DNA of 32,000 bases from positions 270,001-302,000 of the forward strand of contig NC_018267.1 of assembly GCF_000306885.1 (NCBI RefSeq), written 5' to 3'. Position numbers: made by a program. The DNA is from Wolbachia endosymbiont of Onchocerca ochengi (GTDB taxonomy: Bacteria; Pseudomonadota; Alphaproteobacteria; Rickettsiales; Anaplasmataceae). Shown piece by piece: positions 30,001 to 32,000 of the stretch (its first letter is position 1; every line of letters starts with the position of its first letter).

Positions 30001-32000
30001 ATCCAATACGTCCAACCAACAAAAAAAGCCACTGTAGAACCAAAGGCATGTTTTACATAAACATGAGGACCACCAGTTCTTGGAAATTTTGCACAGAGCA
30101 AAGCAAAAACCAAAGCAAGAGATATAGCGCCAAATCCCGATATTATCGAGCTTATAGGACTATACATGCCATATGGAGCTAGGCTAATTGGAAGCATGAA
30201 AATTCCCGAGCCAATTTGACTACTGACAACTAAGGCAAAGATAGCCAAAAAACCCATTTTATCTGACACAATGTTTTCTGATTTTAGTAAATAGATTAAC
30301 AATTTCTGCCGTCCGCGCAAGTCATTCTGTTGCTCAGTAGCTGGTTCATGTTTATGCTTTTCTATTAAATAATCAAACTCAGCAAAAAATTTATTTGCAA
30401 GCAGTGTAAAAGTGCACACTTAATTTCATCTTCATGTAGGAAATCTTATTGTTTAGGATTCTAGATACTCAACTTTTGCTCTTCAGCTGAGAACCACCTG
30501 ACTATCAATAACTTTTACACTTATCACAATAATCAGAGTTTAGTAAGCAAGATGTACTTTACATTAAATCTAATATTTTAAACTAAACACTTTCAGTAAT
30601 ACCACCTGACATAACTGAAACCTTTGTGCCTTTACTTATTCTTAAGTAGTCTATTAGCTCATCAACCAATATATTCGCGGGAGCAGAGAGGATACCCCCC
30701 TCTACGGTAATTCCTACCCTCTTTCTATGCCCTGTAACCAATTTTTATTCACATAGCTGTAGTTATCAATCAAACAAGCTCTCCTTCCTCTCGCAGTACA
30801 CAGATCTAATAAGCGGTTTGTGTGACGTAAGATAAATTATCTAGATCATTAACCTTTAAATCGCGTACATCTTCTATGGTTTACACTAAAGCAATAGGAT
30901 TTTTACTCTTCCTCTAATTTCCTTAGCCTCTGGGTAAGTTTCATGCCTAATCAGAATTAATTCTTTACATTATCCTCATACCTTTTTACTTCTTTGTGCA
31001 CTTTATTAACTAGGGGACATGTTGCGCCAATCACTTAAATACCCTTTTTTTTCGCCTCCTCTTCTACATTTTTTGCACTCAGTATGCACTGAAAATCAAT
31101 ATTCTACTATATTTATCAATATCCTCAACACTACTTATAAAAAACTACTCCTTGTCTCTTAAAAAGTTCTTTACTATATATTTGTTGTGAACAATTTAAT
31201 GTAGAACATAAACTCGGCGCTCGTTTTTATATTTTTTTTAAAAAATAGCCTAATATAGCTACAGCTCTTTTAACTTCTGCACAAAACCCGCGCGGTTCAG
31301 ATAAAATAATTCTCACTTTTTCCAAATTAGATTGGTATGCAAGCAAACATTGCTTAAAAACAAGCTCCGCTCATCATATCTTATAGCACCATCATTTGTA
31401 TTTTATATAATAGTCATTTTTCGCATATTTTCTTTGACGTTTAATCAGTTTGATACTACAGAAGATTTAAGAAAGAGCACTCTCCAAAACGAACAGATAG
31501 ACCAACATTATATATACCAAAGTAGAAGAAAACCAGAGATTATAATAATACAACTGTATTCCATTTTAAATGGCCTTGAATATGAAAGTTTGTACAAAAT
31601 ACTTACTTCGAAAAAAAATTTACCTAGATAAAAAGGTACTCAATCTCAAAGAAGGTATTGATAACAAAAAATACCGATGTGCATAGATGATAAAAACATT
31701 GCTAGAGTTAAAGCATATGTAAATAAAACTAAATCGCAGTGCTTACGTACAGTTATAAAATAGCTGTAACTGCCTACGCATATTGTATAAACCGTAGCCA
31801 CAGTAGAGACAACAATGGGATATTTTACAACGTAATTTTAATATTGAATAAAGGAAAAGTATTAGAGAACAGACTATTACAAGAAGCTACTTCCAGTAGT
31901 AAGATAAGAAAATTACTAAGTACAACAGTAACAGATTAGAACAGACAGAAAAGCAAACATAAAAGTATATTTGATAAAAAGTAAGATTGATCAGCAGAAA

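Follow-up and report, generated by a model that had tools for sequence, protein, structure and literature searches.

For its growth, Rickettsia parkeri relies on isoprenoids of its host, and statins block this growth whereas fosmidomycin does not; according to Ahyong et al., the vacuolar Anaplasmataceae, Wolbachia included, keep the MEP pathway, as host IPP may be out of their reach (PMC6854040). Fosmidomycin lowers Wolbachia in Brugia malayi (PMC7419141), and the symbionts wBm and wDi have been described with all MEP steps except Dxs; Luck et al. (2014) included IspH among the enzymes present in wDi, at a very low level of expression (PMC4289336). In the Wolbachia endosymbiont of Onchocerca ochengi (wOo), a filarial worm of cattle, isoprenoid synthesis was reported to be 'severely restricted' (Darby et al., 2012; PMC3514676). 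Cotton et al. (2016) assigned no more than two reactions of terpenoid backbone biosynthesis to wOv only (PMC5310847), and the supplements of that study contain no matches to the EC numbers of the MEP pathway. In a 2026 survey, 2 of 110 Wolbachia had neither isoprenoid pathway (PMC13001223).

Rickettsia offers a close parallel to wOo. Both are obligate intracellular Rickettsiales in which IPP/DMAPP synthesis appears to be lost while isoprenoid-consuming pathways are kept, and in which dependence on the host mevalonate pathway is likely. They differ in that Rickettsia, which is free in the cytosol, retains none of the genes and has acquired idi, whereas wOo is vacuolar and still carries a recognisable remnant of ispH. 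Decay of other pathways in the same genome, affecting riboflavin, biotin, pantothenate/CoA and recombination genes, was described by Darby et al. (2012) and belongs to the same reductive evolution; the main text of that paper gives neither the ispH lesions themselves nor their sharing with wOv, wOgib and the Wolbachia of Dirofilaria immitis (wDimm) (PMC3514676). The literature thus already contains the loss of isoprenoid synthesis in wOo, and the present work is a confirmation with added detail rather than a discovery. What it adds is modest and limited to the anatomy of the gene, lesion by lesion, the sharing of lesions across Onchocerca symbionts and a probable second loss in wDimm.

A decayed ispH gene at its ancestral position

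The window, i.e., the whole stretch of 32,000 nucleotides that was analysed (positions 270,001 to 302,000 of contig NC_018267.1), has a G+C content of 32.8% and contains intact genes for proS, acpS, murA, thyX, gyrA, the Rieske subunit of the bc1 complex, mnmE, tmk and a kefB/C-like protein, as well as topA, trhO, an ABC permease, apaG, purK, asd and two APC-family permeases. The ispH locus is defined by two neighbouring features:

30559-31316 (-): remnant of ispH (lytB), 758 bp
28995-30419 (-): flanking intact APC-family amino-acid permease (NCBIfam TIGR00905, E=5.9e-70), the conserved downstream neighbour, used as synteny anchor

The extent of the remnant was set by a MAFFT DNA alignment to the intact ispH genes of wCtub (locus L005, 6001-6930) and wBm (locus L007, 6001-6930). 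Intact Wolbachia orthologues measure 930 bp, and nucleotide identity to such genes (e.g., those of wBm and wCtub) is about 79% over the retained parts. A sequence-only reading of the window had called an ispH pseudogene at 30555-31316, and the alignment moves these limits by at most 4 bases, the former start lying at 31316-31314 and the former stop at 30561-30559. The call itself is borne out by a match to the Pfam LYTB family combined with stops and frameshifts within the remnant. The stitched minus-strand translation matches LYTB (PF02401) with an E-value of 2e-25 and 90 bits (cut-off 24.5 bits), over profile positions 1-154 of 267; the C-terminal part of the remnant aligns as DNA. In a database of 5.8 billion protein clusters, the best matches of the stitched translation are Wolbachia IspH proteins, with E-values down to 7e-61. 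When the region 30400-31420 is read, the IspH motifs are found dispersed across all three minus-strand frames.

The gene order ispH, permease(s), hypothetical gene, asd, purK and apaG is conserved in wBm, wCtub, wOv and wDimm. In wBm (CP050521) and wCtub (CP046579), an intact ispH is found immediately upstream of the permease block, at the very place taken by the remnant in wOo, so that the remnant corresponds to the orthologous single copy and not to a stray duplicate. We are highly confident that it is a unitary pseudogene: the sole ancestral ispH copy, decayed in place on the chromosome of wOo, a member of supergroup C.

The reading in which the remnant is a decayed extra copy, with a functional ispH paralogue elsewhere keeping the MEP pathway running, appears very improbable to us. 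Room for such a gene would be offered by the remaining 926 kb of the wOo genome, which lie outside the sequence searched directly, but the remnant lies where wBm and wCtub have their single, intact ispH. Moreover, among the approximately 60 Wolbachia IspH clusters matched in the 5.8-billion-cluster database by the stitched wOo query and a frame-corrected wDimm query, none comes from a Wolbachia of Onchocerca or Dirofilaria; the Asd, TopA, MurA and ApaG proteins of such strains are present in the same database. The literature goes in the same direction, with restricted isoprenoid synthesis in wOo (PMC3514676) and the absence of both pathways from two of the 110 surveyed Wolbachia (PMC13001223). 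The sequence-only reading had left the choice between a second copy and dependence on the host. From the lack of an Onchocerca-Wolbachia IspH among the protein matches, the published restriction of synthesis in wOo and the survey figure, the evidence favours host dependence, with the other MEP genes of wOo taken from the literature, and a unitary pseudogene remains our reading of the remnant.

Anatomy of the decay

The features of the remnant are listed below in the direction of the former gene, after mapping onto E. coli IspH (from NC_000913.3):

31314-31316 (-): former start codon, ATG changed to GTG; ATG in wBm, wCtub and wDimm
31275-31295 (-): PRGFCAE motif, with the first Fe-S cysteine (C12) kept and G14 changed to E (translation and mapping to E. 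coli IspH)
31144-31250 (-): N-terminal lesion cluster, with +1 at ~31250, a TAA stop at 31240, E40 changed to TAA at 31198, +2 at ~31165 and +1 at ~31144
31075-31084 (-): destroyed FSAHG motif, with the H74-equivalent changed to Y, the next codon TGA, then a 1-bp deletion (~31075)
31005-31034 (-): IGATCPLVNK, the start of ATCPLVNKVH, with the second Fe-S cysteine (C96-equivalent) kept, within a 25-codon open fragment
30883-30968 (-): mid lesions, with 1-bp deletions at ~30968 and ~30901, the H124-equivalent changed to Y and a TAA stop at 30883
30815-30816 (-): junction of a 187-bp deletion that removed residues 167-228 in E. coli numbering (T167, C197 and S225-S226-N227)
30678-30722 (-): C-terminal indel cluster, with +2 at ~30722, net +9 around the G6 run, +3 at ~30678 and AGASAP changed to VE..SAP
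30695-30700: G6 run (C6 on the plus strand) in wOo and its sister assemblies, polymorphic in length, with a seventh base in wOv
30583-30741 (-): longest surviving open fragment, 52 codons, the IspH C-terminus, with a TAG in place of codon 302 at its end
30561-30559 (-): former stop position, now TAA, from the DNA alignment to wCtub and wBm

Five internal stops lie in the ancestral frame, plus one more at codon 302. The continuous ORF of about 310 codons that IspH requires is absent, each frame containing 19-26 stops and no open stretch longer than 53 codons, in agreement with the many stops announced by the sequence-only reading. Where that reading had counted at least four frameshifts, one of them at a C/G homopolymer near 30700, we found about 10 frameshifting indel events, and the homopolymer is the C6/G6 run of the list; the replacement of the conserved CAGV by CAEV was likewise seen, as PRGFCAEV. 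Only the description of the IspH landmarks as a full collinear series has to be amended: PRGFCAEV, ATCPLVNKVH, LSYVTQ and GITVE..SAPNILV do follow each other in collinear order, but the series is not full, the 187-bp deletion having taken the third cluster cysteine together with SSNS.

The roles of individual residues as cluster ligands, in diphosphate binding and in the proton relay are known from structural work on the IspH proteins of E. coli and Aquifex. Among the three cysteines that hold the [4Fe-4S] cluster, the codons of C12 and of the C96-equivalent are kept and that of C197 is deleted. As for the substrate and proton-relay residues, two are substituted (H74Y and H124Y), four are deleted (T167, S225, S226 and N227), and the codons of H41, E126 and S269 are kept. 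We also determined the 102 positions that are invariant in 53 full-length intact Wolbachia IspH; the remnant is substituted at 12 of them and deleted or disrupted by indels at 35. Compared with the intact IspH/LytB (EC 1.17.7.4, PF02401) of wBm and wCtub, the wOo relic has the same descent, the same chromosomal position and the same collinear order of motifs, but it is devoid of a reading frame, of C197 and of T167 and the SSN residues, and both histidines are replaced. Given the shortness of every open stretch, the deletion of one Fe-S cysteine ligand and the deletion or substitution of key residues, the remnant, as judged from its sequence, cannot encode an enzyme.

Shared lesions and loss of constraint in the Onchocerca symbionts

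The sequence-only reading had proposed a check against assembly error and a comparison of the syntenic locus in relatives, and both agree with a genuine pseudogene. Three further assemblies with an identical wOo Asd (GCA_902646625.1, GCA_902646585.1 and GCA_902646555.1) reproduce every stop and every indel, with few SNPs relative to the window. At the syntenic locus, where wBm and wCtub have an intact gene, wOv (complete genome, HG810405) and wOgib (JABUMP01) present the same GTG, an identical junction of the 187-bp deletion, most of the small indels and most of the stops. Private lesions are superimposed on this common set: a +2 insertion and the G7 run in wOv, and in wOgib the further loss of 132 bp net through several events. 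Since the main lesions are common to wOo, wOv and wOgib, the inactivation of ispH is placed before the divergence of these three lineages, and the gene has long been dead.

The remnant is 99.1% identical to its counterpart in wOv, 94.8% to that in wOgib and 81.0% to that in wDimm, versus 99.4-100%, 97.7-98.9% and 86.8-92.3%, respectively, for the flanking intact genes. A divergence faster than that of the flanks, accompanied by lineage-specific indels, is what would be expected of non-functional DNA. Pairwise dN/dS amounts to 0.31 between wDimm and wOo, compared with 0.11 for the intact pair wBm-wCtub. Faster divergence, lineage-specific indels, dN/dS and the substitution of invariant sites all show a lack of purifying selection, and the ispH sequence would have drifted as neutral DNA after its inactivation.

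This pattern also bears on the idea of co-option, in which the remnant would owe its retention to a new role, e.g., as a regulatory RNA that is transcribed or as a gene for a small peptide. Almost 98% of the wOo gene models, pseudogenes included, are transcribed (PMC3514676), and a candidate sRNA signal exists in the wMel intergenic region adjoining ispH (PMC4349823). A retained function is nonetheless hard to reconcile with a sequence that diverges faster than the neighbouring genes and gains indels in each lineage, up to the additional net loss in wOgib. In addition, a scan of 30300-32000 against Rfam at a permissive threshold gave no match, only a meaningless sub-threshold hit, and no peptides from the transcribed wOo pseudogenes were detected (Darby et al., 2012; PMC3514676). 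We consider co-option highly unlikely.

The chance that ispH is really intact, its stops and frameshifts having arisen through errors of sequencing or assembly, in homopolymers for instance, can be set close to nil. One lesion does fall on the G6/C6 run, which is one base longer in wOv than in wOo, and the original wOo assembly was 454-based (PMC3514676), but errors of this kind should not recur lesion by lesion in three other assemblies carrying the wOo Asd, nor should wOv and wOgib have in common the 187-bp deletion and the majority of the small indels and of the stops. Errors in the form of indels cannot yield substituted catalytic residues either, and the wOo pseudogenes were checked manually by their authors against Illumina and SOLiD data (PMC3514676). 

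An equally negligible probability attaches to a nuwt origin, in which the window would be a nuclear Wolbachia transfer of the nematode, where bacterial genes decay, and not part of the endosymbiont chromosome. There are 531 nuwts in O. volvulus (PMC5310847), and pieces of IspH itself, derived from Wolbachia, have been reported from the nuclear DNA of two filariae that lack the symbiont, Acanthocheilonema viteae and Onchocerca flexuosa, with transcription in the latter (PMC2882956). The 32-kb window is, however, dense with long intact bacterial genes, among them gyrA, topA, murA, proS, asd and purK. Its collinearity extends to the complete genomes of wOv and wDimm, and its MurA, TopA, ApaG and Asd are identical to CCF78063, CCF78072, CCF78075 and CCF78077 of the 957,990-bp wOo chromosome. 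A functional split gene or a programmed frameshift was also considered and rejected.

A probable second loss in the Dirofilaria immitis symbiont

In the complete genome of wDimm (CP046578.1), no gene is called between a gene for a hypothetical protein of 121 aa and the permease. The ispH homologue that we located there (locus L016, 3467-4400) is full length and contains three frameshifting insertions, at about 3535, 3600 and 4090 of this locus: +2 at a G-run, the site at which wOo has +1, +1 about 60 nt downstream and +1 in an A7 run. It further carries the substitutions F11L, H77D (H74 in E. coli), H124N, S226A and A268G at sites that are invariant in the 53 intact Wolbachia IspH. A protein search with the frame-corrected wDimm query found no wDimm-like IspH protein. 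The wDimm assembly was built from PacBio CCS reads, as was that of wCtub, whose ispH is intact (PMC8116671); there is no second, independent wDimm assembly among the Asd homologues, and homopolymer errors in wDimm retain some probability. The ispH gene of wDimm looks broken as well, probably through a second loss.

The wDimm gene resembles the wOo remnant in belonging to a supergroup C symbiont, in its locus, in the lack of a called gene, in its frameshifts and in the replacement of the H74-equivalent. It differs by a much younger decay, the gene being full length with three small insertions and devoid of the large deletion. The dN/dS of 0.31 between wDimm and wOo indicates a relaxation of constraint that would have lasted for only part of the time since their divergence. 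The very different degrees of decay, together with this rather low ratio, suggest separate inactivations. We lean slightly towards a scenario in which ispH is dead in every supergroup C Wolbachia examined here, following convergent and separate inactivations after constraint had been relaxed in the supergroup C ancestor.

Other features of the window

The region of about 60 nt upstream of the former ispH start (within 31317-31400, minus strand) is still well conserved with wBm, wCtub and wDimm. On the other side of ispH, the tandem pair of APC-family permeases varies between strains. Two genes are present in wOo, wBm and wDimm, and in one other assembly with the wOo Asd the pair is fused into a single 912-aa call. 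In wOv, the second copy has been cut down to 328 aa, and only one permease is called in wCtub and in wOgib, which also has a 94-aa partial duplicate of asd. The coordinates of the region are as follows:

27681-30419 (-): permease region of the window; in the compared loci, L002 1207-3945, L012 4557-5543, L005 7988-9259, and L015 1214-2488 and 4310-4592

Traces of decay are also visible elsewhere in the window:

20860-21961 (+): remnant of an ankyrin-repeat gene in the 1.1-kb gap between topA and trhO (Pfam Ank_2, E=2.4e-6, with joined open fragments)
4900-6689 and 16309-18408: two stretches of about 2 kb free of any ORF of at least 90 aa

The ankyrin-repeat remnant diverges like the ispH remnant, with 94.9% identity to wOgib and 71.8% to wDimm. 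The two ORF-free stretches probably represent older remnants of genes in this degraded genome; Pfam recognised nothing in the joined open fragments of the minus strand of 4900-6689 or of both strands of 16309-18408. Three intact ORFs of 286, 384 and 128 aa, at 76-936 (+), 10372-11526 (-) and 27254-27640 (+), respectively, gave no NCBIfam match. For the 128-aa ORF, a counterpart is conserved between permease and asd at every Wolbachia locus examined.

Isoprenoid supply and implications for the symbiosis

IspH is the terminal enzyme of the bacterial isoprenoid pathway and forms the universal isoprenoid precursors. A dead ispH suggests that the lineage of Onchocerca symbionts no longer makes IPP/DMAPP through the MEP pathway. 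Isoprenoids are still required for the lipid II carrier and for ubiquinone, and two intact genes of the window are related to these needs:

2746-4026 (+): murA, first step of lipid II synthesis
9722-10321 (+): Rieske subunit of the bc1 complex

Their integrity shows a continued demand for isoprenoids; it bears on demand and not on uptake. IPP/DMAPP or FPP may be taken from the mevalonate pathway of the nematode, as Rickettsia does from its own host. We know of no isoprenoid importer in Wolbachia. The Onchocerca symbionts are an exception to the retention of the MEP pathway in vacuolar Anaplasmataceae.

With a dead ispH, the Onchocerca symbionts probably depend on the worm for isoprenoid precursors, which adds a flow from host to symbiont to a symbiosis that is usually framed as provisioning of the host by the symbiont. 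The carry-over of fosmidomycin, or of MEP targeting in general, from Brugia to onchocerciasis should not be assumed; with precursors supplied by the worm, the drug would be predicted to leave Wolbachia undiminished in Onchocerca. If the loss throughout supergroup C is true, vacuolar Wolbachia can draw isoprenoid precursors from the nematode, against the view that vacuolar Anaplasmataceae have to retain the MEP pathway. Drugs directed at this pathway, fosmidomycin among them, would then be predicted not to work against the agents of river blindness and heartworm, and inhibitors of the host mevalonate pathway might do so in their place.
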